The translations under genes and the position numbers were made by a program. This document shows, piece by piece, positions 8,851 to 63,865 of a stretch of 64,000 nt of DNA. The notes beneath the pieces are model-generated. The model saw only the letters and a list, made by a program, of their open reading frames with translations. It had not been told where the DNA came from and made no database searches. How positions within the stretch are numbered: the stretch's first letter is position 1; the number at the start of each line of letters is the position of its first letter. The stretch comes from a virus (lineage: Duplodnaviria; Heunggongvirae; Uroviricota; Caudoviricetes): IMG/VR virus record IMGVR_UViG_3300033075_001920; one strand, written 5' to 3'.

Positions 8851-9288
8851 ATGAGCATGTATGACTATATAGCCAGGAGAGATCCAAGAGGAGCAGTAAA
8901 AGTTCTTTCTGATTTCGGCTATCGTGTTACAGAACCAAGAACAATGGGAAACAACCTTCGCCTTTTGGTTCAAAAAGAAGGTCAACCGGCTCTGATTGCT
9001 ATTTTAGGATTACATCCGGACAAGGATGTAATTTTAGAAGCTTTCGGAGAAGAACAATCCACCCCGCAGGAAAAACCATGCGGATGCAAAGGTTGTTCAG
9101 AAAACAAAAGTTTCGTTAATGCCGATGGAAGCAAGGGTTTAACCTTAAATGAGCTTCTCCCAACCATGAATGCAAATATGCAGGCAAATAACGACGCTAA
9201 TAAACTCGCATCAACCAATAATGCCCTGATCATAGCAGGCGCATTGTTGTTTTCAACCCTCATATTCGTCAACATCAAAAACAAATAA
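8851..9288 (+). CDS. C-terminally anchored membrane protein with FVNADG motif
   Basis: 145 aa with KSFVNADGSKGLTL and the C-terminal helix ALIIAGALLFSTLIFV. Confidence 0.6.
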   Translation: MSMYDYIARRDPRGAVKVLSDFGYRVTEPRTMGNNLRLLVQKEGQPALIAILGLHPDKDVILEAFGEEQSTPQEKPCGCKGCSENKSFVNADGSKGLTLNELLPTMNANMQANNDANKLASTNNALIIAGALLFSTLIFVNIKNK

Positions 9289-9293
9289 CGACA

Positions 9294-9902
9294 ATGGCAA
9301 CATTAAAACCCGAAGATAAACTTTTTACCGCGATGGCTTATACCATCGATAAAAAGCCTAAGGAAACATTGGCTGTAATCAGAAGAAATGGCATATTGCT
9401 TCCTTCCAATGCCAGCCGAAAAGACATCCAGGGAGCTGTTGCTTCCCTTTCCATGAGAAGTAAACCTTTCTGGAAGGATTTTTCGCTTTTAGTTCAAAAG
9501 ACAGGCGAAGAAAATTTCAAAGGATTTGTCCATGCTGACGGAACCCAAGGCTTGAACGATAGTGTAAAGGACAGTAAGAGTAAAGAAAAGAAGGACTATG
9601 CCGACTCTACCTTAGGGAAGGTATTTACTCCAGACTTTATTCAAAATATCCTTGGAACCGGAGTTCAGGTATGGGCTAACAAGCAAAACTCCAAGGCCGG
9701 TGTATCAGGTGTCAATAATGACATCAATTCCGGAAGGAGCAATTACTCCAATGAAGTATCCGGTTCTTCCGGAGATGGTACAGGCAATCCTCCACCTTCA
9801 AAAGGAATCGGGACTACCGGTATCATTTTGATTTCAGTGGGCGCTATTGCATTGATAGGCACAGTGGTCTATTTTGCAATGAAGAGTAAAAAAGGAAAAT
9901 GA
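9294..9902 (+). CDS. C-terminally anchored membrane protein with FVHADG motif
   Basis: 202 aa with GFVHADGTQGLN and the C-terminal helix GIILISVGAIALIGTVVYFAM. Confidence 0.6.
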   Translation: MATLKPEDKLFTAMAYTIDKKPKETLAVIRRNGILLPSNASRKDIQGAVASLSMRSKPFWKDFSLLVQKTGEENFKGFVHADGTQGLNDSVKDSKSKEKKDYADSTLGKVFTPDFIQNILGTGVQVWANKQNSKAGVSGVNNDINSGRSNYSNEVSGSSGDGTGNPPPSKGIGTTGIILISVGAIALIGTVVYFAMKSKKGK

Positions 9903-10141
9903 GTGAGGAAAATAAATATCAAGCTGCATTAGCAAAAGTCAGGAGAGAAAAAACCAACCTTTTAACAGATCAGTCAGGTGAAACGATGAATCTGGTAAAG
10001 GGAAGTGCTTTTGGACTTTTAGCTGGAGCCGGATATGGATTTTTCAAAAAGAAAAACGTATACGTCTGTGCCGTTTTAGGGGCGGTAATAGGCGGAGTGA
10101 TTAACGGAATTGTAATCCCCTATGCAAGTGAGAATATATGA
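9899..10141 (+). CDS. small glycine-zipper membrane protein
   Basis: 80 aa with GSAFGLLAGAGYGFF and VCAVLGAVIGGVINGIVI. ATGA coupling at both ends. Confidence 0.55.
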   Translation: MSEENKYQAALAKVRREKTNLLTDQSGETMNLVKGSAFGLLAGAGYGFFKKKNVYVCAVLGAVIGGVINGIVIPYASENI

Positions 10142-10386
10142 GTAAAGCTGAAAAAATAACACTTGTCTGTATTGCCGTTGGAGCACTGGCTCTTATTGGC
10201 TTGTACGGCAAAAAGATTTCGAGCTATTCATCATCAGACCCTGATGCACCGGTAGGCGACGAAACAGATTTTAATGCAGATGGAAGTCAGTTTAATTACA
10301 ATGCACATGGAAGTAAATTTTCAGATCGCCTGCAACAAAGACAAGTAAAAACCAAAAAGAAACTAACCTTAAATAACCTGTTATGA
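10138..10386 (+). CDS. N-terminally anchored membrane protein with FNADG motif
   Basis: 82 aa with helix ITLVCIAVGALALIGLYG, then DFNADGSQFNYNAHGSKF. Confidence 0.55.
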   Translation: MSKAEKITLVCIAVGALALIGLYGKKISSYSSSDPDAPVGDETDFNADGSQFNYNAHGSKFSDRLQQRQVKTKKKLTLNNLL

Positions 10387-10490
10387 ACAAAACAACCAAA
10401 ATCGTATTTACCATTGCCTTAGTTGGCATTGCAGCATTTTTAATATTCAAAAAACCGGCAGTTGTAGATCCGCCAAAAGAAGTCAAGTAA
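10383..10490 (+). CDS. micro-ORF, single-helix membrane peptide (35 aa)
   Basis: Not in the track. MNKTTKIVFTIALVGIAAFLIFKKPAVVDPPKEVK. Its ATG overlaps the previous TGA and its stop lies 1 nt before the next ATG. Confidence 0.45.
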   Translation: MNKTTKIVFTIALVGIAAFLIFKKPAVVDPPKEVK

Positions 10491-10491
10491 T

Positions 10492-11019
10492 ATGAAATCA
10501 AAAACCCTCATAAAGATTGCAGGAGCCGGATTGCTTGTTTATTTGATTTTCAAATCTTCAAAAAAGTCTGAAGCTCCGAAGGAAACTCCTAAATCTTCCG
10601 GTGGGGGTGGTGGAGGCGGTATGGCATCCAGCCCGATAATTCCTATTTATCCATCCTTTGGTGTTCCTTCAACAACAATAAATACTGTTGTTGGACCAAA
10701 TACCGGAGGCACCCTGTTTAATCCAAATCCTAATTTAATTACTCAGAAGGAAACAACAGGTACCAAGGCTGAAACCACAAAAACCGGAGATAACCAGAAC
10801 ACTACCTATAAAACCCAGGGAGAAGTAACAGGCGGTGGTATTACAGGCGGAGGCACAGGTCAAGGTACCGGATACACGACATCCGGAGGTTCTGGCAGTA
10901 ATGTTTTGACCAAGGATGGAGCAGGCTCCGGAACTAATACAGGAGGCGGACTGGTAGTAAACATGGATGGATTTTCCAAACCAAAAAAAGGCTTACATTT
11001 AGATCATTTCAGAAAATGA
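10492..11019 (+). CDS. N-terminally anchored Gly/Thr-rich membrane protein
   Basis: 175 aa with helix IKIAGAGLLVYLIF, a GGGGGGG tract, G/T-rich repeats and VVNMDGFSKPKKGLHL near the C-terminus. Confidence 0.55.
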   Translation: MKSKTLIKIAGAGLLVYLIFKSSKKSEAPKETPKSSGGGGGGGMASSPIIPIYPSFGVPSTTINTVVGPNTGGTLFNPNPNLITQKETTGTKAETTKTGDNQNTTYKTQGEVTGGGITGGGTGQGTGYTTSGGSGSNVLTKDGAGSGTNTGGGLVVNMDGFSKPKKGLHLDHFRK

Positions 11020-11342
11020 ATAAAACAATTAAAACAGGACTAATGGTGGTAGGTGGCATTGCGGTAGTAATGTTTGCTGCAGGATTCATGGGTAAAAGAA
11101 AAGCTGCTGAAACAGCTTCACCAACCCCGAGCAAACCGGAAGAAAGACCTTCCGATAATGCAAAAGATACGACCACGGCCAATTCGTATGACCCTACGAA
11201 ATTTGGATACAATCCGGGAGCAAAACCTCCGGACATTAAAATAAGTAGTGGCCCTATTCCAACTGAAGTAAATCCGGATTCGAAAACAGTCTTTACTGCT
11301 TTTGATGGTGGGTTAACACTGTCAAAAATACCAAGACGATGA
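11016..11342 (+). CDS. N-terminally anchored membrane protein
   Basis: 108 aa with helix GLMVVGGIAVVMFAAGF and C-terminal FTAFDGGLTLSK. Confidence 0.55.
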   Translation: MNKTIKTGLMVVGGIAVVMFAAGFMGKRKAAETASPTPSKPEERPSDNAKDTTTANSYDPTKFGYNPGAKPPDIKISSGPIPTEVNPDSKTVFTAFDGGLTLSKIPRR

Positions 11343-11662
11343 AAAAGATATTATACATCATAGTGCCAATTGGTCTTGCAGCTGCAGGATTTTTGGTGTA
11401 TAAGAAGTTTTCATCTTCCGGCTCTACCGATGCAGGACCGGTTGAAACTACTCCGGAATTAAAAGATCCGGCTCAAACCCCGTCGGCTCCAAAATTCGAT
11501 ACAGCCAAGGTACCGGCCGTAAACAGCGATAGCAATATTGCAAAAAGCGGAACAGGAAGCTGGATGGCTCCATCAGGTGGCGCAAGCGGCGTGGTTGCAA
11601 ACTTTTCAGGAACAGAAAAAAAAGGATTGTACATAAATGATATCGGCAAATCAGGAATATAA
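11339..11662 (+). CDS. N-terminally anchored membrane protein
   Basis: 107 aa with helix ILYIIVPIGLAAAGFLVY and C-terminal VVANFSGTEKKGLYIN. Confidence 0.55.
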   Translation: MKKILYIIVPIGLAAAGFLVYKKFSSSGSTDAGPVETTPELKDPAQTPSAPKFDTAKVPAVNSDSNIAKSGTGSWMAPSGGASGVVANFSGTEKKGLYINDIGKSGI

Positions 11663-11909
11663 GCTCTCAGGATCAACTTTGCCTTTCGCCCAGTGGCTTG
11701 AAAGGGAAAAAACAAAAGGCAGATTCATTCCCAACAAGGGAGCGACAGAGGAATTCATGAATTTTGCAGGAGCGGAAAAATATCCATCTCCGGATGGAAG
11801 TGAACCAATTCCTGCAGCAAACTACGTGGTTCCAAACCTGCTTAGAACAGCTGCTTTGATTGGTGTTGTTTACATAGTTTATAGAGTATACAAAAATGCC
11901 CAAAAATAA
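11637..11909 (+). CDS. C-terminally anchored membrane protein
   Basis: 90 aa with EEFMNFAGAEK and the C-terminal helix LLRTAALIGVVYIVY. Confidence 0.5.
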   Translation: MISANQEYKLSGSTLPFAQWLEREKTKGRFIPNKGATEEFMNFAGAEKYPSPDGSEPIPAANYVVPNLLRTAALIGVVYIVYRVYKNAQK

Positions 11910-12153
11910 GGTTGTAAAATATGCGCTCATTACACTTGGACTTATAGTATTATATGTCAACAGAGCTATTTTCAACCCTGTAAAATTGCCATTGAATGCA
12001 GATGCCGGTGCCAAAGGAGAAGATGCTAACGTAGCCGATCCCGAAAACGCCAAGAGTGATAACCAGACAGCAATTGACCGTGCATTACTCAAAATCAAGA
12101 CAGGTTCTGTAAAAGTAAATCCAACATCGAAGGAGGCGAGCCAGAGCCTATGA
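11896..12153 (+). CDS. N-terminally anchored membrane protein
   Basis: 85 aa with helix VVKYALITLGLIVLYV, then LPLNADAGAKGE. Confidence 0.5.
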   Translation: MPKNKVVKYALITLGLIVLYVNRAIFNPVKLPLNADAGAKGEDANVADPENAKSDNQTAIDRALLKIKTGSVKVNPTSKEASQSL

Positions 12154-12944
12154 AGTATAGAGTAACGACTAACAACGCACCGATTCGTCTGGAAATAAAA
12201 GTTAAAACATCAAAACCCGAAACGCTGTGTGTATTGGTCTATGATGAAAAGAATCCGGAAGGTACTGTATTTACAAACCGGTGGAAAACAATCAATGGAG
12301 AGGAAACATTTTCCGTCCGTCTTCCATTGAGTCCGGCAACTGCCATTGTGGAGGTTTATAACAAAGCACTTGGCCGTGGAATAAAAAGGGAAAATGAAAC
12401 TTCGTTCTCTATAGAATCAGTTGAAAAGAAAGCACTTGAGCGCAAACTTGCACCAAGCGATATTGCCAATGCCGATATAAGGTCCTTTGTTGACTTTGCG
12501 TGTGCAGTGGCATATAACCTTGGCACAATGGAGCCGGATAAGGCTTACCAAAGTGATGACGGCAAATTCTTCATTAAACTCTCCGGCAGAATGCTGGATA
12601 AACAGGGAAATGAAGTAACCACCCCGGCAAGGATTAACCGCCATACAGGTGTAATTCAGGTATCTAAAAAGCAGATGCTTAAAATGACTGTTCCAATGCG
12701 TTTTGCAATCTTAATGCATGAATTCAGCCATTATTATCTGAATGAAAAGATTGACGATGAGATGGAAGCAGACTTAAACGGCCTGCTGATTTATCTCGGA
12801 TTGGGATTCCCGAGAATAGAAGCATATCAGGCTTTTCTTGAAACCTTCAAGAACCGCCCGAGCGAACTAAATAAAGACCGGTATGATATTATAAATAAAT
12901 TCATTACCGATTTTGAAAACATAGGAATAGTGATCAACAAATGA
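12150..12944 (+). CDS. putative zinc metallopeptidase (HExxH)
   Basis: 264 aa containing FAILMHEFSHYYLNE (HExxH) with a downstream E/D-rich segment. Embedded in the membrane-protein run. Confidence 0.5.
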   Translation: MKYRVTTNNAPIRLEIKVKTSKPETLCVLVYDEKNPEGTVFTNRWKTINGEETFSVRLPLSPATAIVEVYNKALGRGIKRENETSFSIESVEKKALERKLAPSDIANADIRSFVDFACAVAYNLGTMEPDKAYQSDDGKFFIKLSGRMLDKQGNEVTTPARINRHTGVIQVSKKQMLKMTVPMRFAILMHEFSHYYLNEKIDDEMEADLNGLLIYLGLGFPRIEAYQAFLETFKNRPSELNKDRYDIINKFITDFENIGIVINK

Positions 12945-13081
12945 CAAAGAAAATAATTATCATATCGCTTTTGTCAGCCGGGTTAATAGCACTTGGAATC
13001 CATTATGTATCCAAAGATAAAAAGATGCGTATGGGCTCAAAAGAAGCTAATCAGGCGCTGGAAGGTATGAAAATGTATTAA
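12941..13081 (+). CDS. micro-ORF, single-helix membrane peptide (46 aa)
   Basis: Not in the track. MTKKIIIISLLSAGLIALGIHYVSKDKK... ATGA overlap with the previous gene. Confidence 0.45.
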   Translation: MTKKIIIISLLSAGLIALGIHYVSKDKKMRMGSKEANQALEGMKMY

Positions 13082-13084
13082 CAG

Positions 13085-13936
13085 ATGGCAGACCAGTATG
13101 GATATCGTGCAGTAATGATTAACCAGGCTAATCCGGGTTATCCGGCCGGTGCTGTGGCTATCATTAATTTTCTTAAGGATAAATACCGTAAGGAAATAGA
13201 TGCAGCTGCAGACAGGTGGAAAGTTCCGCCACCCATTCTGTATTCGTTCTTTGGAGTTGAATCAGGAAGGGGAGGTAACGATTTGGATTCTTTTGATAAG
13301 CGCACAGTTGGAGGCGTAACAGTTCCCAACACATATGCGCTATGTCAGACCAATTCGATTGGAATTAATGGAGCAATCAAATCCTGTCTGGCAGGCGATT
13401 GCACCCTTGGTCAGATCTATCCGGTTTATGATGCCTTTCCGATAGCGTTTAAGATTGTAAAGAATCTTCCTCCAAAGGCAGATTTCTGGAAAGATGAGTA
13501 CAAGACCAAGAGAAATGAGAAGGCCAGTGATTATTTTGAACTCAGTGATGCTGCCAGAGCTTTTGAAAAAGCAAAGGGAAACATTAAGTCGTATTGGGAT
13601 GCCGGCGCTAAAAAATTAAAATCAGATCCGGGCTTCTCTACCAATATTGGAGCAATACTTTTGAGCAAATATCTCTTAGAGGATTTATCAAAGGTAAAAG
13701 AGGAGGAAATTGATGGAAAGAAAGTAAAGATGGCAAGGCTCGACTGGGTAATTACCAAGTACAATGCCGGTCCGAATGCTTTCAAAAACATGGAGGAGAA
13801 AAAAAATGACAAGGTACAAGCTGATACCACAGTGTTTATTACGATTGTTCCCAGCTATACCAAGTCGTATATTATAAAATTGGTAGGCAAGGATGGTCTA
13901 CTGGATGTACAAAAAAGAGGACTTGTAAAAGTGTAA
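13085..13936 (+). CDS. lytic transglycosylase (SLT domain) protein
   Basis: FFGVESGRGG (catalytic E-S), ALCQT and ITKYNAGPNAF match SLT motifs by eye. Confidence 0.65.
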   Translation: MADQYGYRAVMINQANPGYPAGAVAIINFLKDKYRKEIDAAADRWKVPPPILYSFFGVESGRGGNDLDSFDKRTVGGVTVPNTYALCQTNSIGINGAIKSCLAGDCTLGQIYPVYDAFPIAFKIVKNLPPKADFWKDEYKTKRNEKASDYFELSDAARAFEKAKGNIKSYWDAGAKKLKSDPGFSTNIGAILLSKYLLEDLSKVKEEEIDGKKVKMARLDWVITKYNAGPNAFKNMEEKKNDKVQADTTVFITIVPSYTKSYIIKLVGKDGLLDVQKRGLVKV

Positions 13937-13937
13937 T

Positions 13938-14381
13938 ATGGCAGTTAACACATGGAATATCGCACCGGATTATGATGAATGGGGAGTTGATTCTTCCTGG
14001 ACAGCAGCCGATTGGATTCAGTGGCATAAGCTGCTTAAGGAAAAATTTGGCAAAGACAAAGCAAAAATTGCCTGGGAATATGCCTATGCGAAAAATGGTG
14101 CTTTTGCCAAGGCTTGGGATTACCGAGTGTTTAATTCAGGTTTCCGCCAGTATGTTCAGGATGAAAACCTTGATCCGTATGTCAATGCCGGGTTATTCGA
14201 TCCTCTTTTGAAAGGATACGCAACCGTATCGGATGTATTTGATTCTGTAACGGATGGTATATCTGGAGTATTCGGAGGAAGCAAGACAGGAAAAACCGTA
14301 GTTACGGTTATACTTATTGCCGGTATTTCGTTTGCGGTTTTCAAAGGAGTTCAGGCATTTAAAATGTTAAAATCAGAGTGA
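13938..14381 (+). CDS. Trp-rich protein with C-terminal membrane anchor
   Basis: 147 aa. The C-terminal helix is TVVTVILIAGISFAVF. Confidence 0.55.
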   Translation: MAVNTWNIAPDYDEWGVDSSWTAADWIQWHKLLKEKFGKDKAKIAWEYAYAKNGAFAKAWDYRVFNSGFRQYVQDENLDPYVNAGLFDPLLKGYATVSDVFDSVTDGISGVFGGSKTGKTVVTVILIAGISFAVFKGVQAFKMLKSE

Positions 14382-14545
14382 TGACAGAGAGTAAAAAAAC
14401 CATATTGATTGTAATCTCCACTGTGCTGATAAGCGGTACCATTATCGGTATGGCGATACATAAAGTGCGTAAGGAGAAGATGAATCTGGTTAATGATAAG
14501 GATTTTCAGGAATTAATGAAAAAAATTGACAATGCCAAAAAGTAA
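14381..14545 (+). CDS. micro-ORF, single-helix membrane peptide (54 aa)
   Basis: Not in the track. MTESKKTILIVISTVLISGTIIGMAIHKVRKEK... TGATG overlap with the previous gene. Confidence 0.45.
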   Translation: MTESKKTILIVISTVLISGTIIGMAIHKVRKEKMNLVNDKDFQELMKKIDNAKK

Positions 14546-15023
14546 AGTATACATATTTTCAGGTCTGGCCATTTCGCTCTCGATTGTAGCTTACTTTTTT
14601 ATAACCAAAAAGAAAAAGTTACCGCCAAGTGAAATACCAAAAGTGGATGCTTCCGGTGAAGAAATTACCAAGGAGCAAACAGTCATTCCTGAATCTTTGG
14701 CAGCTCTGATGAAGCTATCGGCAGCTAATGCGACCAAAGCGCTTAGGGGTAAGGATGTATATACTAAACTGAATGATGCCAACGCGCGGGAAGTTGCCTG
14801 GGTAAACAATGGGGTTATAAATAATCTCATAGGTACCATTAAGACCAAGGGCACTTATGTCGGAAAAATACTGGATGTGGAAGAGGATGGCAATGGAGCA
14901 AGAAACGGAGACAGAATATACAAGTGGGTAATGATTGCCCCAACAAGCAAGGAAGCGCGTAAAGACCTGGGAACCGATAGACCAATTTATTTAAGAGAAG
15001 ACGTAATTAATTTGACAAAATGA
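14532..15023 (+). CDS. N-terminally anchored membrane protein
   Basis: The track start at 14526 is TTG; the ATG at 14532 (MPKSKVYIFSGLAISLSIVAYFFI) is preferred. Confidence 0.55.
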   Translation: MPKSKVYIFSGLAISLSIVAYFFITKKKKLPPSEIPKVDASGEEITKEQTVIPESLAALMKLSAANATKALRGKDVYTKLNDANAREVAWVNNGVINNLIGTIKTKGTYVGKILDVEEDGNGARNGDRIYKWVMIAPTSKEARKDLGTDRPIYLREDVINLTK

Positions 15024-15649
15024 ACAGAACATTAAAATACAGCCTTTATTTTGGCGTAGCAGCATTATCAACACTAATTCTTGTCAAGTTGCTAAGGAAA
15101 AAAGAAGAGGAGCCTGTAATCGATTTACCTTCACCTTCCGGCGGAGTGACTTTGAATAACATTCCAAAGTCTATAAACAGATCTGCTATTTTAGTTTTTG
15201 GTTCAAAAGGAGCGGAAGTAAAAGAACTGCAGAAGATACTGGGAGTTACTGCCGATGGCATATTTGGGAAAGATACTCAGGCGGCTTTGGCTGCAAAAAC
15301 CGGTCAAACTTCAGCATCGCTTAATACCGTAAGTAGAATCATGGCTGAGTATGCCGCTAAGAAAGCGCTTGAAGCTAAACTCAGTGGTATTAAATCCACT
15401 TTCCCGGTTGGCAAACCGGTTACGGCTGCGGCAACATTCAGGGCGTTTGCTTATCAATTCCGGAATGGGGATTGGTACCCAACGGATGCTAATGGCAAAT
15501 CACTTCCGAGCAAAGAATTTTTGAAAACAGCCGATATGGGTAAGGTATTCGGATATGGAAAAGCAGATCCGAATCTTATCATTATTGAACTGCCTCAGAC
15601 AATAGAGGGATGGAGATATGCAGGTGTAAAATCGACTTGGATTAAGTAA
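15020..15649 (+). CDS. membrane-anchored peptidoglycan-binding domain protein
   Basis: N-terminal helix YSLYFGVAALSTLILV. GSKGAEVKELQKILGVTADGIFGKDTQAAL matches the PG_binding_1 repeat by eye. Confidence 0.6.
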   Translation: MNRTLKYSLYFGVAALSTLILVKLLRKKEEEPVIDLPSPSGGVTLNNIPKSINRSAILVFGSKGAEVKELQKILGVTADGIFGKDTQAALAAKTGQTSASLNTVSRIMAEYAAKKALEAKLSGIKSTFPVGKPVTAAATFRAFAYQFRNGDWYPTDANGKSLPSKEFLKTADMGKVFGYGKADPNLIIIELPQTIEGWRYAGVKSTWIK

Positions 15650-16146
15650 TGGATATTGATGTATTCTATCGCAATGGTGACGCCAGTTTTGGTGTAGATG
15701 GAAATAAAAATTTCGTAGAGGAATTTTCATGGCCAATGATAAATGCGTCAGGTCCGGAGCAGGAAGCACTTTCTTCTTACAGAAAGCAGCTTACCCCAAA
15801 GATGAAATCCGATTGTGCGGCTTTGGCTACTCTTCTATCGCAGGTTAAAAGCGAAATAGAAATAGCGACTGCAGGTAAAATTGCAGCTAAGTCATCGGAG
15901 AAAAAGAAGATTGAACAAAAGATCGCCGGACTTGAAAAGGCGAAAAACGAGATACAGGCAGCATACAATTCCGGAAAATGCGATGCTAAAATAGCGCAGA
16001 AAGACCAGGATGCTCTTTATGCTGCATTAGGTGTAGGAAAAGGTCCGGATGTGGCAAAAGTAGGAACCTACCTTATTGTAGGCGGAATCGGAGTGGTGGC
16101 GTTGGCTGTAGGTGTAATATTGTATAGAAAATTTAGAAAAAAATGA
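15649..16146 (+). CDS. coiled-coil protein with C-terminal membrane anchor
   Basis: 165 aa. The C-terminal helix is TYLIVGGIGVVALAVGVILY. Confidence 0.55.
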   Translation: MDIDVFYRNGDASFGVDGNKNFVEEFSWPMINASGPEQEALSSYRKQLTPKMKSDCAALATLLSQVKSEIEIATAGKIAAKSSEKKKIEQKIAGLEKAKNEIQAAYNSGKCDAKIAQKDQDALYAALGVGKGPDVAKVGTYLIVGGIGVVALAVGVILYRKFRKK

Positions 16147-39879: not shown

Positions 39880-40050
39880 TTAATCGTTACGCGATTTTAA
39901 ATATTCAAAAATATCCTTTGGAAATCCGAACCATAATTCCCGGAAACCTTCCGATTTAGCGAACATTATCATACCAATGATGGTGCAGCAAATAAGAGCA
40001 GTGGCGGCAAGCCAGATCGTTAAAAGAATGGAAAGAAAGAATAATTTCAT
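39880..40050 (-). CDS. small membrane protein
   Basis: The internal ATG at 40050 (MKLFFLSILLTIWLAATALICCTIIGMIMF) avoids overlap with the upstream gene. Confidence 0.45.
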   Translation of the reverse strand: MKLFFLSILLTIWLAATALICCTIIGMIMFAKSEGFRELWFGFPKDIFEYLKSRND

Positions 40051-40057
40051 AATTTGA

Positions 40058-40525
40058 TTAAATAAGAAAGTAATTACCCACCTTTGAATAAACAACATTG
40101 TTCTTCAACATCTCCATCCACTCTTCTTTAGAGGCGGTATAATTAGCAAATGTTGTGCAGTTTTCAGCAGCATATTCACAAAGCTTTTCCAGTTCATCTG
40201 CTTTAAATACAGGGCTTTCGGGTGTTCCTTCTGATGTCTCTTCGTATAACTGAATATGGGTTAGTTCCTCTGGAGTATATTTTTTGGTTTGATATCGTTC
40301 TATCTCAGGAGCGTCTCCATTCCACATAGCATAAAACGGGTATTTTTCTTTTGAGGCATCCCCGCTTAACAAATCAGGATGCGTTCCGGCTTCCCATAAT
40401 TGATGGTTATGTAACCACTCATTTAATGCATCGCCATAATATTTATTAAACATAGGGATGTAATTCCCATCACTGTCCTTTGGATGCTCCCATCCTTCGG
40501 GAACTTTTCTAATTATTCTACCCAT
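40058..40525 (-). CDS. hypothetical protein
   Basis: 155-aa ORF. Confidence 0.45.
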   Translation of the reverse strand: MGRIIRKVPEGWEHPKDSDGNYIPMFNKYYGDALNEWLHNHQLWEAGTHPDLLSGDASKEKYPFYAMWNGDAPEIERYQTKKYTPEELTHIQLYEETSEGTPESPVFKADELEKLCEYAAENCTTFANYTASKEEWMEMLKNNVVYSKVGNYFLI

Positions 40526-40531
40526 AATGAT

Positions 40532-41467
40532 TTATTTTGGGAGTTGTACAATTGCTCCGGAGTTTGGGGAAAGCACAGTAGTAGGATTTACCCCATTCCA
40601 TGTTTTAACTTTTAGATATTCAATATAAAGCGGAGTAAGCTGCATCTGCTCTTTCTTTATTGCTTCCGCGCGTCCGGATGCGGCGATCACAGCCTGGGCA
40701 GAATCTCCTCTGGCTGTGGCTATTTTTCGCAGAGCTTCCGCTGCAGCTACCTTGGTTTGGCTTTCGGCTACCATAACATCCTGTATTGCTTTGGTTTTCT
40801 GAACAATTGATTCTTTAAGGGCATCGGGAGGCATAATATTGGTTCTAAGTTGCGATATCGTAAACCACTTTCCGGTACGTTTTATAGTTTCAGCAATGAT
40901 CGACATTTCAAATAGTTCTCTGTGATTAAAAATACTATCTACGGTCCAGCTATTACTTACATCATTTATAGAGCTGGTAATGGCGGTTTTAAGCCATAAT
41001 TGTTCTACTTCTTTCAAGGGAAGTCTAAGGTTGGAAAACATATCTCCTACCGTGCCCGGAATAAGTGAATAGTTAAAGGAAGGTTTTATAATAGTTGGAA
41101 ATCCACCCTTGGTAATTACCGGCTGCTCAGGATAATCGACATGTTGCTGGAAGATCTGGTATTCGTATAGTTTTGAAAACCAACTATTATAAACCACCCA
41201 TCCGCCTTTTAATTCGTATTTCGAAATTCCTCTTTCATTTCCGGATAAGCGAAAAACTATACCTACACTCCCGGCATCGACTCGTTTAATTGTAAATGGC
41301 TGGATAAATGAAAAAACGATTCCGCCTGAGAAGATGGAAAAGGTGATAATAGCTGCTTTGATTTTTGAGCTTGCGCTGGCGTCAGAATCAGTAAAAACGC
41401 TTAATTTTTTGAAGATGTACCAAACGGTAATTGCTATCGTTAAAAGTACGAAAATTGTAGTAATCAT
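40532..41467 (-). CDS. SPFH/band-7 (prohibitin-homology) domain membrane protein
   Basis: N-terminal helices, then VDAGSVGIVFRLSG... and a C-terminal Ala/Glu-rich helix (VAAAEALRKIATARGDSAQAVIAASGRAEAIKKEQ) typical of SPFH proteins. Confidence 0.6.
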   Translation of the reverse strand: MITTIFVLLTIAITVWYIFKKLSVFTDSDASASSKIKAAIITFSIFSGGIVFSFIQPFTIKRVDAGSVGIVFRLSGNERGISKYELKGGWVVYNSWFSKLYEYQIFQQHVDYPEQPVITKGGFPTIIKPSFNYSLIPGTVGDMFSNLRLPLKEVEQLWLKTAITSSINDVSNSWTVDSIFNHRELFEMSIIAETIKRTGKWFTISQLRTNIMPPDALKESIVQKTKAIQDVMVAESQTKVAAAEALRKIATARGDSAQAVIAASGRAEAIKKEQMQLTPLYIEYLKVKTWNGVNPTTVLSPNSGAIVQLPK

Positions 41468-41679
41468 TGTTGTGGGTTATTTTTTTTTGGTTTTAAAATT
41501 TCGATTAACAATCCGAGGAGTATAAGACTCACTCCCAGTATAGCTACAGCGCAGCCCATCTGAAGCCAGGTATCACTACTTTCGCTGAAAAGGCTGAATA
41601 GGTAATCAAGAATCATCATCCAGCCAATTAGTATAATGGAAGTGAGCATGATTTTTTTGAAGATGGTTATTTTGTTCAT
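41464..41679 (-). CDS. two-helix small membrane protein
   Basis: 71 aa with LTSIILIGWMMILDYLF and CAVAILGVSLILLGLLI. ATGA-coupled upstream of the SPFH gene. Confidence 0.5.
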   Translation of the reverse strand: MNKITIFKKIMLTSIILIGWMMILDYLFSLFSESSDTWLQMGCAVAILGVSLILLGLLIEILKPKKNNPQQ

Positions 41680-41811
41680 ACAGATTTGATAATTAAGTTT
41701 TTTTGATTTTACCGGTTGCTACTTCCTTCTTTGACTTACTACTTGAAATACAATCCAAAATGAGCAGGATCAAAGAAAGGATTGCAACAGTCCTGAAAAA
41801 GCAATTTCTTC

Positions 41812-42204
41812 TCACTTGGCTTTAATAATTAAGGATGATTCGTCTAAGGTAATAGAATACGGCTTTTTGCACGCCGAGCATTCAAATGCTGTGTCGTTAA
41901 AAACAATTTTCATATTTTGAATAGCTTCTTCCTGTCTGTCCACATGATGCGATTCATAAGAAAAGAGCTTCTTCCTTCCGCATATGCAGGTAAATGTCCC
42001 GCCGGCCACTATGGATGATACTTCTTCATTGCTGTATAAGACCAGAACAGAGAGAATAATTCCAGAAAGCAGATCATCGTGGTACTTTTGAGTTTTTTTA
42101 AAAGCCCGGATATGTTCACTGTTGTGTATCTGAGGTATGATTTTTCTGCCGTTGGCAAGCATTGTTCCGTCAGTAGAAACGGAGTAAATTATTCTATTTT
42201 CCAT
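41812..42204 (-). CDS. hypothetical Cys-containing protein
   Basis: 130 aa with CICG...H and CSACKK pairs. Confidence 0.45.
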   Translation of the reverse strand: MENRIIYSVSTDGTMLANGRKIIPQIHNSEHIRAFKKTQKYHDDLLSGIILSVLVLYSNEEVSSIVAGGTFTCICGRKKLFSYESHHVDRQEEAIQNMKIVFNDTAFECSACKKPYSITLDESSLIIKAK

Positions 42205-43049: not shown

Positions 43050-44570
43050 TTATAATTTTTCCGGTAATGTTTGCCCTTTAATCTTCGCATATCTCTGCAT
43101 AAGTCTGGCCCAGACGTTTTCATCTTTGAACTTTAAGTGCAGGCTTCCTTTCATATATCCCTTAATTTCAAAGAAACCCCAATCCATCCACTTGCCAAAT
43201 TCAGATTTCTGTTCTACAATTTCAAGTTCAACACCTACTTTGGCAGCCTCCTGCTTTACATGAACCAGCGAATCGTATTTATCTTCGTGCAGGTATTTAT
43301 ATTCTCCCCATGATCGGATAAACTGTCCGTCTTTTTTAACATGGAATGAGTACCTTGTTAAATTGTACAAATCCGGTATGGTGTCATAGTCAATTCCTTC
43401 ATTGGCGGCAATAACCTTTACAAGGTCATTTAAGCGCTGTGCGTTCGAATAAGAACTGTGGGCGGATTTGGCGTACATACGACCTACTTTGTATCCTTTT
43501 TCAGTCATGTAGTCAAGGATGAATTTTTTGTTCAACATATAACCGGAATTGGTTTTCCATCCTTCTACGTTGTAGCGGTTTTCGTGCGTATGGCGCGTAA
43601 AGTTATCGACGGCCTCTTCCAAAGCTTTATTAAAAATCTGGTCTTTGGTCCCACGGATAATATCAAACATTTTGTAGATATTTCTCATAGTGAAAGGGAT
43701 TTGAGTCTGAGTTTCTACAAACTTATTGATTTCACCAATTACACCAGCAGTGAGATACTTAGACATATTCATTTCATTGAATAAATGCTCCCATGCTTTC
43801 TTCTGAAGTGCTTTTTTAAACTCGTCATGCGTACATACAGTATCGTTGTACCCAACTTGGAAGGTAAAACCACCCACGCCGAAAGGAGCGGTATACTTGT
43901 TCATTTTTTTATTTAATTCCAAATGCTCATCAAAGCACTTTACAGAGCCGATATATCTTTGGACAATATCACGAACATAATTGTATTTCATGATTCCTTC
44001 CCTTGCCGGTCCTTCGGGTTCTTCCTCGAGAAAAAATCCATCAAATTCATTGTTTTCATCTGCAGGCTTGAATAAGCGTATTAAGCCGACATGGACATCG
44101 GTACTGCGCTCAGCATCTGAAAAGGGATTACCTAAGTTTTCAAGACTTCCATATGATTCAATAATTGGAAACAGTTCCTGTGCTGCAGTTCTATACTGGT
44201 TTTTAATGCTGCTATGGTTTACCAGTGAAACAATTTCACATCCTGCAGGAGCAATCTTCCATGCATGCAAAATATGGGCGCAATCGTTGGAAAAAGGAGG
44301 ATTCATAACTATAGCCCCAATATGGCTTACTTCATTAGGAACTACCTGTAAAAAGTCGTTTTTCAAAAACTGAGCTTTACTACTGATAATTTTAGCAAGA
44401 TCCATATGAATTTCACAAGCCAAAACTTTTGCCCCATAGCTTTTAAGCACATCTACAATGTTACCTTTACCGGCTGATGGCTCTAAAACAGTTTTACCAT
44501 TTACGTCCATTCCATGCAGCATTGTATGTATGGTATTTTCGGGGGTTGGATAGAAATCTGAATTAAACAT
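43050..44570 (-). CDS. N6-adenine DNA methyltransferase (gamma class, NPPF) with large C-terminal domain
   Basis: FYPTPENT, VLEPSAGKGN (motif I) and IVMNPPFS (motif IV), followed by ~300 aa of unassigned domain. Confidence 0.7.
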   Translation of the reverse strand: MFNSDFYPTPENTIHTMLHGMDVNGKTVLEPSAGKGNIVDVLKSYGAKVLACEIHMDLAKIISSKAQFLKNDFLQVVPNEVSHIGAIVMNPPFSNDCAHILHAWKIAPAGCEIVSLVNHSSIKNQYRTAAQELFPIIESYGSLENLGNPFSDAERSTDVHVGLIRLFKPADENNEFDGFFLEEEPEGPAREGIMKYNYVRDIVQRYIGSVKCFDEHLELNKKMNKYTAPFGVGGFTFQVGYNDTVCTHDEFKKALQKKAWEHLFNEMNMSKYLTAGVIGEINKFVETQTQIPFTMRNIYKMFDIIRGTKDQIFNKALEEAVDNFTRHTHENRYNVEGWKTNSGYMLNKKFILDYMTEKGYKVGRMYAKSAHSSYSNAQRLNDLVKVIAANEGIDYDTIPDLYNLTRYSFHVKKDGQFIRSWGEYKYLHEDKYDSLVHVKQEAAKVGVELEIVEQKSEFGKWMDWGFFEIKGYMKGSLHLKFKDENVWARLMQRYAKIKGQTLPEKL

Positions 44571-57423: not shown

Positions 57424-58350
57424 ATGACAGAAACCAAGCCAATAGCGCTCACAGTTGTATCGTTCGGTGCCGGTCAGGACACAATCTATTTTGTGCACAG
57501 ACTTTTAAACGACCAGACTTTCTACGATAGACACGTAAAGGGCGATCTTGTTATTGTTGGCTCGGATACCGGCAATGAGCACCCGCATACTTACCAAGCC
57601 ATTCATCATATAAAAGAATTATGCAATGGCCGGTTTGGATTTTTCTGGCTTACTCCTGACATGGGCTTTCATCCTATTACCTGGCAGAGCCTTACATATC
57701 AATATAAATTGAACAGCAGATGCGGCTCAGCTGCATTTCCTCAGACCTGCACAGACAATTTAAAGGTCAAAGTGGTAGATAATTTTGTCGAATGGTATAT
57801 TGGCAGGATGTATCTAAACATTGAACTTCCTCAATTTGTTAACCGCAAATATGTAGGTAGTAATAAGAAAAACTACCATCAATTCTATGAGAATCATGGT
57901 AAGATAAGGCTTATTTTAGGCTTTGCCGATCAAGAGGAGAGCCGGACAAAGAACGGTAATAAGTTTGATCCTGTTTGGAAAAAAAAGGTAATAGAAAGAT
58001 ATTATCCTCTTATTGAAGACAAAACAGACCGTCAGCAGGCTATTGATTACAATGAAGCCAATATTGAAATGAAAATATTCCCGAGCAATTGTATGATTTG
58101 TTTCTATTCATCCGATCAGGAAATACTTTGGCTTTACCGGAACTATCCACAGGTATTCTATGAGTGGGTGGATATCGAAAAGAAAAAGCTCGAAAAAAGT
58201 GCTGACAAAGAAAAGAATTATGGGGTATATGGGAAAATTACCCTGCAGCAGAAATTAGAAAAGGCTGAGAAACTTTATGGGCATTGGTCCGACGATCAGC
58301 TCACTGAATATAAATACTCCCACGGACATTGTATAAAATCAAGATATTGA
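57424..58350 (+). CDS. PAPS reductase-like (PP-loop ATPase fold) protein with degenerate P-loop
   Basis: VVSFGAGQDTIYF sits in place of SGGKDS. Also VGSDTGNEHPHTY (DTG.E.P.T) and QTCTDNLKVKVV (WCT..LK-like). Confidence 0.5.
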   Translation: MTETKPIALTVVSFGAGQDTIYFVHRLLNDQTFYDRHVKGDLVIVGSDTGNEHPHTYQAIHHIKELCNGRFGFFWLTPDMGFHPITWQSLTYQYKLNSRCGSAAFPQTCTDNLKVKVVDNFVEWYIGRMYLNIELPQFVNRKYVGSNKKNYHQFYENHGKIRLILGFADQEESRTKNGNKFDPVWKKKVIERYYPLIEDKTDRQQAIDYNEANIEMKIFPSNCMICFYSSDQEILWLYRNYPQVFYEWVDIEKKKLEKSADKEKNYGVYGKITLQQKLEKAEKLYGHWSDDQLTEYKYSHGHCIKSRY

Positions 58351-62899: not shown

Positions 62900-63865
62900 A
62901 TGACTGGAATGGAGTCTTATGATAAATACATTGTTGCCTTCTCTGGTGGCAAGGATTCAACGGTATGTTTCTTACATCTGCTGGATCTCGGAATTCCAAA
63001 AGAAAAGATTGAATTATGGCACTGTCTGATTGATGGTAAAGGACCGGTCTATATGGATTGGGAAGTTACCGAGGACTATTGCAGAAAATTTGCGGAAGCT
63101 TTCGGGGTTAAAATTTACTTTGCATGGAAGGAAGGTGGTTTCAAAAAGGAAATGTACAGAGAAAATGCTCTGACAGCTCCAACCACATTTGAAATTCCGG
63201 AAGGCGGAACTAAGACTATTGGAGGCGTCCGTGGCAAACTCACCACAAGGCGTAAATTTCCGCAGGTAAGCCCCGATCTGAATGTGAGATGGTGTAGTGC
63301 CTATCTGAAAATAGATGTGTGCTCTGCTGCCATCAGAAATCAGTCAAGGTTTGACGGATTAAAGACAATTGTGATATCCGGTGAGCGCGGGGAAGAATCT
63401 GCTGCCCGTGCAAAATATGCTGAATTTGAAGTGGATAGGGCGGATGGAAGAAATGGCAGAGGAAAGCGGCACGTCGATCGCGGCAGGTTGATAAAGGATT
63501 GGACCGAGGCTCAGGTATGGGATATCATATCAAAATACAAAGTTGTGGTGCATCCATGTTACTATATGGGATGGTCAAGGTGCAGTTGTAAGTTCTGCAT
63601 CTTTGGCAATGCTGACCAATTTAAATCAGCCTACACGGTTTCTCCGACTCAGGGGGAACTGCTTATATCAGCCGAGGAAGAATTCGGTGTCACAATGAAG
63701 CGGAAAGGTTCTATAAGGGATTTGGTGAGTGCTGGCAATGATTACCCGGGCATATCATCAAGCACAATCGAACTAGCCACCAATCACATCTATACCGGCC
63801 AGATATTTACTCAGCAATGGAATCTTCCAATGGGAGCATTCGGAAATGGATGTGGACCATCTTGA
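62900..63865 (+). CDS. PAPS reductase family (PP-loop ATPase) protein
   Basis: IVAFSGGKDST (SGGxDS PP-loop), VRWCSAYLKIDV and a C-terminal Cys cluster (CYYMGWSRCSCKFCIF). Confidence 0.7.
   Translation: MTGMESYDKYIVAFSGGKDSTVCFLHLLDLGIPKEKIELWHCLIDGKGPVYMDWEVTEDYCRKFAEAFGVKIYFAWKEGGFKKEMYRENALTAPTTFEIPEGGTKTIGGVRGKLTTRRKFPQVSPDLNVRWCSAYLKIDVCSAAIRNQSRFDGLKTIVISGERGEESAARAKYAEFEVDRADGRNGRGKRHVDRGRLIKDWTEAQVWDIISKYKVVVHPCYYMGWSRCSCKFCIFGNADQFKSAYTVSPTQGELLISAEEEFGVTMKRKGSIRDLVSAGNDYPGISSSTIELATNHIYTGQIFTQQWNLPMGAFGNGCGPS

Follow-up and report, generated by a model that had tools for sequence, protein, structure and literature searches.

A divergent SPFH gene and a predicted hairpin microprotein gene as a conserved pair in Bacteroidota chromosomes and their phages

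SPFH proteins are universal organisers of membranes, and the clients and partners of the bacterial members are mostly undescribed. To our knowledge, NfeD is the sole widely recognised SPFH operon partner, and it accompanies some subfamilies only. The locus studied here lies on a 64,000-nucleotide stretch of DNA recorded as that of a virus of the Caudoviricetes (IMG/VR record IMGVR_UViG_3300033075_001920; the whole stretch is termed the window). It raises the question of whether an SPFH gene and the minute membrane protein gene overlapping it constitute a functional unit, and whether such a unit would belong to the biology of the phage or of its host. The features of the locus are as follows:

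41464..41679, minus strand: gene for the 71-aa hairpin microprotein (ORF call), a divergent representative of a family that lacks annotation and is encoded upstream of this SPFH clade
41560..41607, minus strand: microprotein residues 25-40 (DYLFSLFSESSDTWLQ), spanning the end of helix 1, a short loop and the start of helix 2 (alignments, HMM alignment)
41464..41467, minus strand: ATGA overlap of the microprotein stop and the SPFH start (sequence)
40532..41467, minus strand: gene for the 311-aa SPFH/band-7 protein (ORF call, PF01145, phrog_200 and Foldseek)
41297..41464, minus strand: membrane anchor at the SPFH N-terminus, in which two helices (residues 2-20 and 37-57) are separated by a basic loop (FKKLSVFTDSDASASSKIKA)
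40733..41284, minus strand: SPFH (Band_7) core, residues 62-245 (Pfam match boundaries)
40535..40825, minus strand: long Ala/Glu-rich helix (residues 215-275), after which come one short helix and, at the C-terminus, beta strands (AF2 secondary structure)

The preliminary description of this DNA had reported ORFs of 311 and 71 aa joined through an ATGA, and was accurate; both lie on the minus strand at the stated positions, and the microprotein TGA at 41466-41464 overlaps the SPFH ATG at 41467-41465, at the ATGA junction ...CAACAATGATTACT. The JGI annotation instead starts the small ORF at Met11, yielding 61 aa; since a basic N-terminal tail recurs across the microprotein family, its sequences favour the 71-aa start. 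The neighbours of the single SPFH gene are unrelated small genes, with no tandem SPFH paralogue among them. The GC content of the pair (0.37-0.42, against 0.32-0.43 nearby) gave no compositional sign of a recent acquisition, and a scan of the locus for promoters and terminators, uninformative for Bacteroidota, returned nothing above shuffles.

Identity, fold and topology of the SPFH protein

The 311-aa protein is confirmed, by profile matches and a predicted fold, as a real but divergent SPFH protein. Firstly, it matches the Pfam Band_7 profile (PF01145) at E=1.8e-13 and 51.4 bits (gathering score 23.6) across residues 62-245 (from RVDAGSVG) and profile positions 2-174 of 176. Secondly, its residues 2-310 align to positions 44-360 of the 379 in phrog_200 (E=1.5e-43), although the 'lipoprotein' label of that family is inapplicable to the window protein, which has no lipobox. 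Thirdly, the AF2 model has an SPFH fold. This structural comparison was needed because a search of PDB sequences with the family SPFH profile recovered no solved SPFH protein, only spurious matches to Fis1. No NCBIfam model, those for HflK/HflC included, matched the window protein at E<=1. Foldseek returned 55 PDB matches to the model at E<=0.001 (best E=6e-8), the best 50 of which were all SPFH-fold assemblies (about 49 of the SPFH family and two entries for the major vault protein), with a probability of 1.00 to prohibitin, stomatin, HflK/C, erlin, QmcA and flotillin. Isolated SPFH-domain crystal structures gave target-normalised TM-scores of 0.67-0.84, and chains from the prohibitin, stomatin and HflK/C cages align with the model over ~200-300 columns; solved SPFH proteins are 12-18% identical to the window protein. 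The model has a pLDDT of 71.6 and a pTM of 0.42, and is poor over residues 62-105.

The earlier SPFH assignment is thus upheld by both profile HMMs and predicted fold, and the membrane helices and Ala/Glu-rich helix that had accompanied it were also recovered. The two N-terminal hydrophobic segments, at approximately residues 2-20 and 37-57, are predicted to span the membrane, and the C-terminal part of the AF2 model, which includes the long helix at residues 215-275, resembles SPFH cages in its layout, with a coiled-coil wall and a cap. [quoted passage not shown]

HflK/HflC and prohibitin share with the window protein the SPFH core, the long coiled-coil helix and the C-terminal cap (aligned to 8rrh, 9o9z, 7wi3 and 7vhq), and the window protein further resembles HflK/C in that its bulk is predicted to be non-cytoplasmic. 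It differs from HflK/HflC in being encoded by one SPFH gene rather than a paralogous pair, in having a two-helix rather than a one-helix anchor, and in having a microprotein as its partner. Across the family, the loop between the two anchor helices averages 4.1 K+R against 2.0 D+E, whereas the segment after helix 2 has 1.4 K+R against 2.2 D+E, and the relatives in crAss-like and Pseudomonas phages carry lipoprotein signal peptides. Because of this basic inter-helix loop and these lipoprotein-type relatives, the SPFH domain is predicted to face the periplasm.

The microprotein and the conservation of the pair

The two hydrophobic helices reported previously in the 71-aa protein are found by both Kyte-Doolittle analysis and AF2, which models a hairpin with helices at residues 3-33 and 37-62 (pLDDT 79.7) and a basic tail of ~9-10 residues after helix 2. 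Its topology is predicted from the distribution of charges in the sequence to be N-in/C-in, with a motif-bearing loop facing the periplasm. Alignments of the family place this motif, FEYx[IV][NS]R... / [DN][YF]D[IL][ST]GSW, across the end of helix 1, the loop and the start of helix 2. The window copy is the most degenerate member, with an eroded motif and no more than 28% identity to any other; which relatives are nearest, all at identities <=28%, varies with the alignment. It has no family match in Pfam, NCBIfam, PHROG or PADLOC, and the family came to light only through neighbourhood analysis.

This analysis covered 160 related loci, 80 from genomes and 80 from IMG/VR, which stem from Chitinophagaceae, other Bacteroidota genomes and IMG/VR contigs. 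Depending on the adjacency criterion, ~81-97% of them have a hairpin ORF of 55-80 aa directly upstream of the SPFH gene. Under the strict criterion, a gap of -20 to +30 nt, such an ORF is present at 65 of the 80 genome loci and 67 of the 80 IMG/VR loci; under the relaxed criterion, counting distinct sequences, the figures are 75/77 and 56/60 (93-97%). Control genes from the same loci have a small hydrophobic ORF upstream in only 9% and 6% of cases. The overlap itself recurs: 40 bacterial loci and 33 viral ones share the 4-nt form, and a further 21 viral loci have one of 8 nt. Since the ~3-19% of loci without a microprotein gene are joined by Flavobacterium phage FL-1 (49% identity), the SPFH protein can occur without its partner.

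The small gene has its own signature of selection and descent. Against an HMM of the other microproteins, built without the window copy, the 71-aa protein scores 29.5 bits, compared with at most 7.6 for 500 shuffles and less than 5 for the remaining small TM ORFs in the window. In a reciprocal test, three out of three homologues recovered with the microprotein profile had a Band_7 gene directly downstream. The median dN/dS is 0.17 across 14 independent pairs, and none of the 46 representative clusters, all of 34-111 aa, shows a fusion to another domain. On this evidence from sequence the small ORF is a genuine gene, whose product belongs to a hairpin family of its own under purifying selection. 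Both genes are under such selection, and their divergences are correlated (Mantel r=0.80, with 0/999 permutations as high), as expected of any tightly linked pair.

The pair is, judged by these comparisons, a conserved module of two genes, present on Bacteroidota chromosomes and in many phages of these bacteria, and the tight coupling reported previously is real. The two outcomes that had been named in advance as fatal to the earlier description, no predicted SPFH fold and a pair not conserved in relatives, were both looked for, and the opposite was found on each count.

Origin of the pair and its counterparts in other phages

The pair had been put forward as a phage feature, and this framing did not survive comparison. 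The nearest relatives of the window SPFH protein (66-69% identity) are cellular, in housekeeping neighbourhoods of Bacteroidota chromosomes (AsmA/NFACT; ABC-F/T9SS/DsbA; OsmC/PurD/FolE), and further chromosomal copies adjoin SusC/D or PaaABC. In a midpoint-rooted NJ tree the window sequence clusters with two bacterial sequences (L006 and L014), and viral and bacterial sequences are interleaved. Because the closest relatives sit in these ordinary chromosomal contexts, the phage pair is likely to have been derived from a Bacteroidota host, a sequence-based conclusion of low certainty. When every window ORF was compared with all related loci by tblastn, only the SPFH gene was held in common, and there was no synteny with any relative; megablast of the 22 kb around the pair found no match in INPHARED.

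The viral nature of the window is itself supported by only a few PHROG matches. PHROG and Pfam scans found no capsid, portal or clear terminase gene within its 64 kb, and the same scans of the large window ORFs and of the flanks of the IMG/VR loci gave few matches; among the IMG/VR contigs there may be cellular DNA that was misclassified.

Phage SPFH genes are already known, with entries in genome papers from 2006 onwards (PMC1524935), and tblastn identified 266 phage records with an SPFH homologue. Those of PHROG 200 (T4-like 44RR, Aeh1 and RB43, Vi01-like phages, Bequatrovirus and other Herelleviridae, crAss-like phages and Lak megaphages, among others) are in the same PHROG family as the window protein, and in most cases they too are immediately preceded by a small membrane ORF. 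Such an ORF precedes 87% of crAss-type and 92% of Bacillus-type SPFH genes, as well as those of Pseudomonas Meara and Staphylococcus SA1 phages. The crAss-type and window-type microproteins are related with an hhalign probability of 86.5%, against 0.6-2% for reversed controls. The window clade is distinguished by its two-helix anchor, whereas other phage SPFH proteins have a lipoprotein or single-TM anchor, and the nearest relatives of the window protein are cellular rather than viral. Within the literature searched, phage SPFH function and a microprotein partner received annotation-level mentions only. While the phage SPFH genes are familiar, the rule that a microprotein accompanies them appears undescribed.

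Proposed function and competing explanations

The reading we prefer, with a probability of roughly 0.6, is that the pair is a conserved two-gene membrane module, in which a divergent SPFH protein would form a periplasm-facing cage and the upstream microprotein would be its stoichiometric hairpin partner. Overlap-coupled translation would bring both proteins to the host inner membrane in a fixed ratio. The SPFH protein, with its domain on the periplasmic side, would oligomerise into a cage like those of HflK/C or prohibitin, while the N-in/C-in hairpin, its motif at the periplasmic interface, would join or line a transmembrane ring and help to fence off a patch of membrane. More tentatively, the element may have taken the module from a Bacteroidota host and may express it from an accessory or early-type gene block; during infection the module may, again with low certainty, stabilise the inner membrane or change its organisation, or govern membrane protein quality control as HflK/C does for FtsH.

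In Bacillus subtilis, the small membrane proteins SamG/SamH (YdjG/H) are reported to be encoded with, and to act with, the SPFH protein SamI (YdjI) (bioRxiv 10.64898/2026.02.06.704340); unlike the window protein, SamI is a cytosolic protein recruited by its partners, and its operon context (pspA) differs.

An alternative to this module is lysis control, in which the microprotein would be holin-like (class II) or otherwise permeabilise the membrane, and the SPFH cage would sequester or time it. Class II holins are small, with two helices, an N-in/C-in topology and a basic C-tail. The microprotein is predicted to be alike in all these respects, including the ~70 aa typical of class II holins and pinholins, although the features are generic for small hairpins, and it matches no holin family in Pfam or PHROGs. 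The crAss-type gene order, namely the two-TM mini, an SPFH lipoprotein, sometimes a TM protein, and then a peptidoglycan hydrolase, also fits lysis, with a homologue of this hydrolase <=3 kb downstream in 57 of 76 loci; these loci are syntenic, and hence not independent. However, the microprotein family is also kept at non-prophage chromosomal loci of many Bacteroidota, where its neighbour is the SPFH gene, not an endolysin gene. Furthermore, the only clear endolysin-like gene of the window (1312-1977) is ~39 kb from the pair, and no lysis domain was found in the gene downstream of SPFH in any of the 8 window-type viral loci sampled. Lysis control is an unlikely explanation of the pair.

Superinfection exclusion or interference with defence, whereby a change in the inner membrane would block DNA injection or membrane-acting abortive-infection effectors, had also been proposed, and is likewise improbable. 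The pair does sit in an accessory block of small genes without assigned function, and in one related viral locus it lies beside an integrase, in a moron-like position. Elsewhere, the PhiSH19 SPFH gene is listed beside an annotated superinfection exclusion protein (PMC3220722), and that of DLP5 was counted among the moron genes by its authors (PMC5834331). Yet neither window protein matches PADLOC-DB 2.0 at E<=0.01, the literature searched offered no experimental precedent, and conservation in housekeeping regions of chromosomes points to a basic cellular membrane function rather than a dedicated anti-phage one.

A broader conjecture, to which we give little credence, is that of a general 'caged membrane-active peptide' device across unrelated phages and Bacteroidota: the SPFH cage would restrain a holin-like or membrane-perturbing hairpin and free it on a signal, with phages using it to time lysis or manipulate the envelope. 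Were this true, the microprotein would act as the effector, regulated by the SPFH protein, in a reversal of the usual view of a scaffold plus accessory.

The arrangement had further been likened to an NfeD-SPFH operon, and the microprotein might then be an NfeD cut down to its membrane helices. The comparison stands as regards adjacency, coupling and the smaller size of a partner without the soluble domain; it fails on gene order, as E. coli has qmcA and then ybbJ. The likeness is one of position only. In NfeD-SPFH operons (YbbJ-QmcA, YuaF-FloT, PH1510-PH1511) a small membrane protein gene adjoins and is coupled to the SPFH gene, as in the window; NfeD partners are found only for SPFH1, 2 and 5 (Hinderhofer et al. 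2009, PMC2636767), to which they are adjacent and translationally coupled as the microprotein is here, and qmcA-ybbJ of E. coli also share a 4-nt overlap. In QmcA-YbbJ (structure 8z5g, cited in PMC13086221) the partner is a stoichiometric component of the cage. However, the Pfam NfeD profile (PF01957) matches 0/10 microproteins even at E<=10, and when the microprotein profile was aligned by hhalign with E. coli YbbJ, the one NfeD compared, the probability was 0.3% (reversed control 0.1%). The ~10 residues after helix 2 leave no space for an OB-fold, and 0/46 representative homologues exceed 111 aa or carry an extra domain. Lastly, NfeD partners are documented for QmcA, which faces the cytoplasm (Tan 2024, as cited in PMC13086221), opposite to the predicted periplasmic orientation of the window SPFH protein. 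Hence, with no Pfam match, no similarity to YbbJ and no OB-fold domain, an NfeD identity for the microprotein was rejected, and descent from a degenerate NfeD-SPFH operon is very unlikely.

It had also been suggested that the phage builds its own membrane, in which case the SPFH cage and hairpin would sculpt or sort membrane patches for a lipid-containing structure in the virion or the cell. In the window a HerA/DUF87-like ATPase gene (7002-7850) adjoins an unbroken series of ~12 small single-TM ORFs (8851-16146), an arrangement that recalls the gene layout of membrane-containing phages; tblastn of the ATPase and the adjoining 380-aa ORF against phages gave no match. Against this, no hallmark of membrane viruses, the double-jelly-roll capsid included, was identified in the window, its tail-fibre-like PHROG matches suggest a tailed phage, and the pair is ~25 kb from the TM-ORF cluster, on the opposite strand and in another block of genes. 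Ordinary bacterial chromosomes and crAss-like tailed phages carry this pair as well, making a role in membrane biogenesis highly improbable. Finally, small hydrophobic ORFs are frequent in AT-rich phage DNA and a single-sequence search with the 71-aa protein recovered only itself, but the possibility that this ORF is spurious, or an unrelated one adjacent by chance, is practically nil, being excluded by the upstream frequency (93-97% against 6-9%), the profile score (29.5 against <=7.6 bits), the dN/dS (~0.17) and the reciprocal neighbourhood test (3/3).

For the preferred two-gene module, these findings reveal no new mechanism. Rather, they would add a second, unannotated kind of SPFH partner to NfeD: a linked, co-inherited and selected hairpin microprotein, accompanying a predicted periplasm-facing SPFH clade that is common in Bacteroidota. 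Such small ORFs are often missed or left as 'hypothetical' in annotation, and in phage genomes could pass for holins. Several phage lineages carry SPFH genes with a small membrane ORF ahead of them, and the pair may serve as a testable two-protein system for studying the contents of SPFH cages and the reasons for their repeated acquisition by phages.

The overlapping gene pair and its divergent SPFH protein

The TGA of the upstream ORF overlaps the ATG of its downstream neighbour (junction CAACAATGATTACT), and the GC content of the pair is close to that of its surroundings. The ORFs concerned, and the small ORFs flanking them, are:

41464-41679, minus strand: 71-aa ORF, the microprotein gene, encoding a two-helix hairpin
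40532-41467, minus strand: 311-aa ORF, the SPFH gene, Pfam Band_7
41693-41815, minus strand: 40-aa hydrophobic ORF with a GTG start, just upstream of the microprotein gene
39880-40098, minus strand: 72-aa hydrophobic ORF, overlapping the end of a 155-aa gene downstream of the pair

Hydrophobic helices span residues 2-20 and 37-57 at the N-terminus of the 311-aa protein, which also has a long Ala/Glu-rich helix (residues 215-275); the AF2 model of the 71-aa protein contains helices at 3-33 and 37-62 (pLDDT 79.7). All the features listed in the preliminary description are present: an ORF pair with an ATGA-type overlap, an SPFH domain, an Ala/Glu helix and a two-helix mini membrane protein. The JGI start of the small gene is Met11, giving 61 aa, but the 71-aa start appears preferable, as a basic N-tail is typical of the microprotein family. 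Whether the two flanking ORFs are coding genes is uncertain; neither matched the microprotein profile (-2.7 bits for 39880-40098; 4.8 bits for 41693-41815).

Profile HMMs and predicted structure agree on the SPFH assignment that had been proposed from sequence. Band_7 covers residues 62-245 (51.4 bits, gathering score 23.6; E=1.8e-13), PHROG 200 matches over the full length (E=1.5e-43), and PF01145 is found in all 2154 homologues at E<1e-10. An AF2 model built from 39 homologues (pLDDT 71.6) had 55 Foldseek matches to solved structures at E<=0.001, the best 50 of which were prohibitin, stomatin, HflK/C, erlin, QmcA-YbbJ, flotillin and major vault protein; isolated SPFH domains gave target-normalised TM-scores of 0.67-0.84. 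The family is nevertheless divergent within the superfamily, as its sequence profile retrieved no SPFH chain among the solved structures, no NCBIfam model matched, and identity to solved relatives is 12-18%.

A conserved microprotein family in Bacteroidota and their phages

The nearest SPFH relatives of the window, at 66-69% identity, have ordinary bacterial surroundings: an ABC-F ATPase/T9SS plug gene on one side and DsbA on the other; AsmA/NFACT genes alongside; or an OMP/YitT/OsmC group to one side, with PurD, FolE and peptidase M1 to the other. Among other copies, a 2.3-Mb Pseudoflavitalea contig has one next to SusC/D and a short-chain dehydrogenase, and one lies downstream of PaaABC. Each of these chromosomal neighbourhoods contains a 56-74-aa ORF ending at, or just ahead of, the SPFH start. 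Hence the pair is not phage-specific.

This arrangement was surveyed in 80 loci from GTDB genomes (Chitinophagaceae, Ferruginibacter, Flavisolibacter, Lacibacter, Sphingobacteriaceae and others) and 80 from IMG/VR. When a hydrophobic ORF had to end between -20 and +30 nt relative to the start of SPFH, 65/80 genome and 67/80 viral loci had one; the two genes overlapped by 4 nt (-4) in 73 of the loci and by 8 nt (-8) in a further 21. When the interval was relaxed to -30 to +80 nt, and only distinct sequences were counted, the figures were 75/77 genome loci (9% for control genes in the same loci) and 56/60 viral loci (controls 6%). Reciprocally, a Band_7 gene lay directly downstream of all three microprotein homologues retrieved by the microprotein profile. 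Absence of an SPFH fold, or of the pair from all relatives, would have told against the preliminary description; the fold is predicted and the pair is conserved. Chance adjacency of the two ORFs is refuted. The mini gene is absent upstream of SPFH in Flavobacterium phage FL-1 (49% identity), and therefore the partner does not accompany every SPFH gene.

The microproteins are a genuine family. The 114 distinct sequences aligned share two helices and a motif at the end of helix 1, FEYx[IV][NS]R[PE] or [DN][YF]D[IL][ST]GSW, of which the window has a degenerate version, LDYLFSLFSESSDTWLQ. Even so, a profile from which the window microprotein had been left out gave it 29.5 bits, compared with at most 7.6 for 500 shuffles and less than 5 for other small membrane ORFs of the window. 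Median dN/dS was 0.17 (14 independent pairs), against 0.03-0.11 for the SPFH gene. Distances between microproteins followed those between SPFH cores (Mantel r 0.80, reached in 0/999 permutations), as expected for linked genes and in keeping with inheritance as a unit. The family has no Pfam or NCBIfam model, and when 1.84 billion representatives were searched exhaustively with its profile, 46 clusters were found, all of 34-111 aa and free of fusions to other domains.

Neighbour joining of 142 SPFH sequences placed the window with bacterial loci L006 and L014, in a tree where viral sequences are intermingled with bacterial ones at several points. This would fit phages and Bacteroidota hosts having exchanged the gene repeatedly, with the window copy coming from a host; the direction of transfer is only inferred because the tree is distance-based and midpoint-rooted. 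The window SPFH protein is on a long branch, and carries S67 (H in the family), V71 (K), R73 (N) and S75 (T) just past helix 2, at positions nearly invariant elsewhere; its partner has the most eroded motif. Constraint on the phage copy may have been relaxed or shifted.

Two viral contigs merit separate mention. A tyrosine integrase (L099 3328-4134; phrog_1, E=1e-44) lies ~0.7 kb upstream of the pair on a 63-kb IMG/VR contig, suggesting that some carriers are temperate, with the pair in a moron-like position. In IMGVR_UViG_3300020045_004773 (L004 2793-3554, the same as L100), a 253-aa ORF in which Cys-rich hexapeptides (CSDCSR/CSDCSG) repeat over a long stretch is ~0.5 kb upstream of the pair.

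Phage contexts and alternative functions

Listings of phage SPFH ORFs go back to 2006 (PMC1524935), so that an SPFH protein encoded by a phage is in itself no novelty; tblastn found such genes in 266 INPHARED records. The small membrane ORF upstream of them seems undescribed.

Small membrane ORFs upstream of SPFH genes in other phage lineages
crAss-type: 58/67 distinct loci; controls 23%; ~63-66 aa, two helices, loop motif SAPNTIEN
Bacillus/Herelleviridae-type: 22/24 distinct loci; controls 14%; 35-50 aa, one helix
Pseudomonas phage Meara: single locus; controls unscored; 75 aa, two helices, 14-nt overlap with the SPFH start
Staphylococcus phage SA1: single locus; controls unscored; 86 aa, one helix

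Alignment of crAss-type with window-type microproteins by hhalign (probability 86.5% over 46 columns; reversed controls 0.6-2%) suggests, without proving, distant homology. The Bacillus-type mini has no detectable relation to the Bacteroidota hairpin family; in Bacillus phage and prophage loci (L179-L235; L175 1261-1395) it is a single-TM protein with an amphipathic, charged tail.

A less likely alternative is lysis control, with a holin-like microprotein regulated by the SPFH protein, and its support comes mainly from crAss-type loci. In crAss-like IMG/VR loci (L236-L311; L003 2249-4097) the order is two-TM mini, SPFH lipoprotein, (121-aa TM protein), then peptidoglycan hydrolase, which looks like a lysis cassette; a hydrolase homologue is <=3 kb downstream of SPFH in 57/76 crAss-type loci. 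However, neither the window nor eight sampled window-type viral loci support this function, which is also hard to reconcile with housekeeping chromosomal contexts. The sole clear lysis enzyme of the window is an endolysin-like gene ~39 kb from the pair (1312-1977, plus strand; phrog_181, E=1.9e-21).

For superinfection exclusion or defence interference the hints are circumstantial, and PADLOC returned no match for the pair. The pair lies in a minus-strand block (~31.8-52.2 kb) of small, mostly matchless genes, including DUF1643 and DUF5131 genes, an HTH protein and a 506-aa DUF4942-type DNA methyltransferase (43050-44570, minus strand; phrog_32703, E=1.8e-148; PADLOC mad2, E=1.9e-13). Other window genes were sought in relatives' loci, and none besides SPFH was shared.

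Virion-membrane biogenesis has no evidence beyond a cluster of ~12 consecutive small single-TM ORFs, which is probably why a membrane-building phage had been proposed:

7002-7850, plus strand: HerA/DUF87-like ATPase (Pfam E=9e-6; weak PHROG terminase match)
8851-16146, plus strand: the single-TM ORFs, beside the ATPase

This layout recalls membrane-containing phages, or a secretion/conjugation-like module; neither the ATPase nor the 380-aa ORF upstream of it (5860-7002) matched 50,697 phage records by tblastn. The proposal is unsupported, because no capsid, portal or membrane-virus hallmark was found in the 64-kb window. The viral nature of the window rests on PHROG matches (tail-fibre, methyltransferase, PAPS reductase, endolysin), gene layout and the reported length of the contig, 132 kb. 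The PAPS-reductase-like genes are paralogues <6 kb apart (57424-58350 and 62900-63865, plus strand; phrog_424, E=6e-18 and 9e-30).

The likeness drawn to NfeD-SPFH operons holds for position beside the SPFH gene, and not for sequence or fold. A degenerate NfeD is not supported: Pfam found no NfeD match to microproteins, the AF2 model leaves no space for the OB-fold of NfeD, and hhalign against E. coli YbbJ gave a probability of 0.3%, no better than a reversed control. In E. coli K-12 (L312 2402-3774) qmcA, which encodes the SPFH protein, comes first and overlaps the NfeD gene ybbJ by 4 nt; hence the order NfeD then SPFH is not universal. Hinderhofer et al. (PMC2636767) reported NfeD partners for subfamilies SPFH1, 2 and 5 alone.

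Topology and a candidate membrane scaffold

Charged residues (K+R / D+E), as counts per segment across the family
SPFH protein: N-tail 0 / 0; inter-helix loop 4.1 / 2.0; after helix 2 1.4 / 2.2
Microprotein: N-tail 1.2 / 0.2; inter-helix loop 0.8 / 1.5; after helix 2 3.0 / 0.7

By the positive-inside rule, these counts predict a periplasm-facing SPFH domain, and an N-in/C-in hairpin with its conserved motif at the periplasmic interface. The crAss-like and Meara relatives have a lipoprotein signal peptide in place of the two-helix anchor, which would likewise place the SPFH domain outside the cytoplasm.

The best-supported reading is a two-component membrane scaffold. Family assignments, conservation, selection and cellular relatives are established for the pair; that the proteins form a complex, how they are oriented and that a cage assembles are deductions from homology and sequence statistics. 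Overlap-coupled translation would supply both proteins in a fixed ratio; the SPFH protein would form a periplasm-facing cage, like HflK/C and prohibitin; and the hairpin would join or line the cage's transmembrane ring via its conserved motif. As a guess at its role in infection, this module, borrowed from the host, may reorganise or protect the inner membrane, or control membrane-protein turnover. The SPFH gene itself is unremarkable, belonging to a known superfamily and to a class of phage genes that is known though uncharacterised. What is new is the nearly obligatory hairpin partner. It lacks annotation and is widespread among Bacteroidota as well as their phages, and in unrelated phage lineages analogous small membrane ORFs likewise precede SPFH genes.
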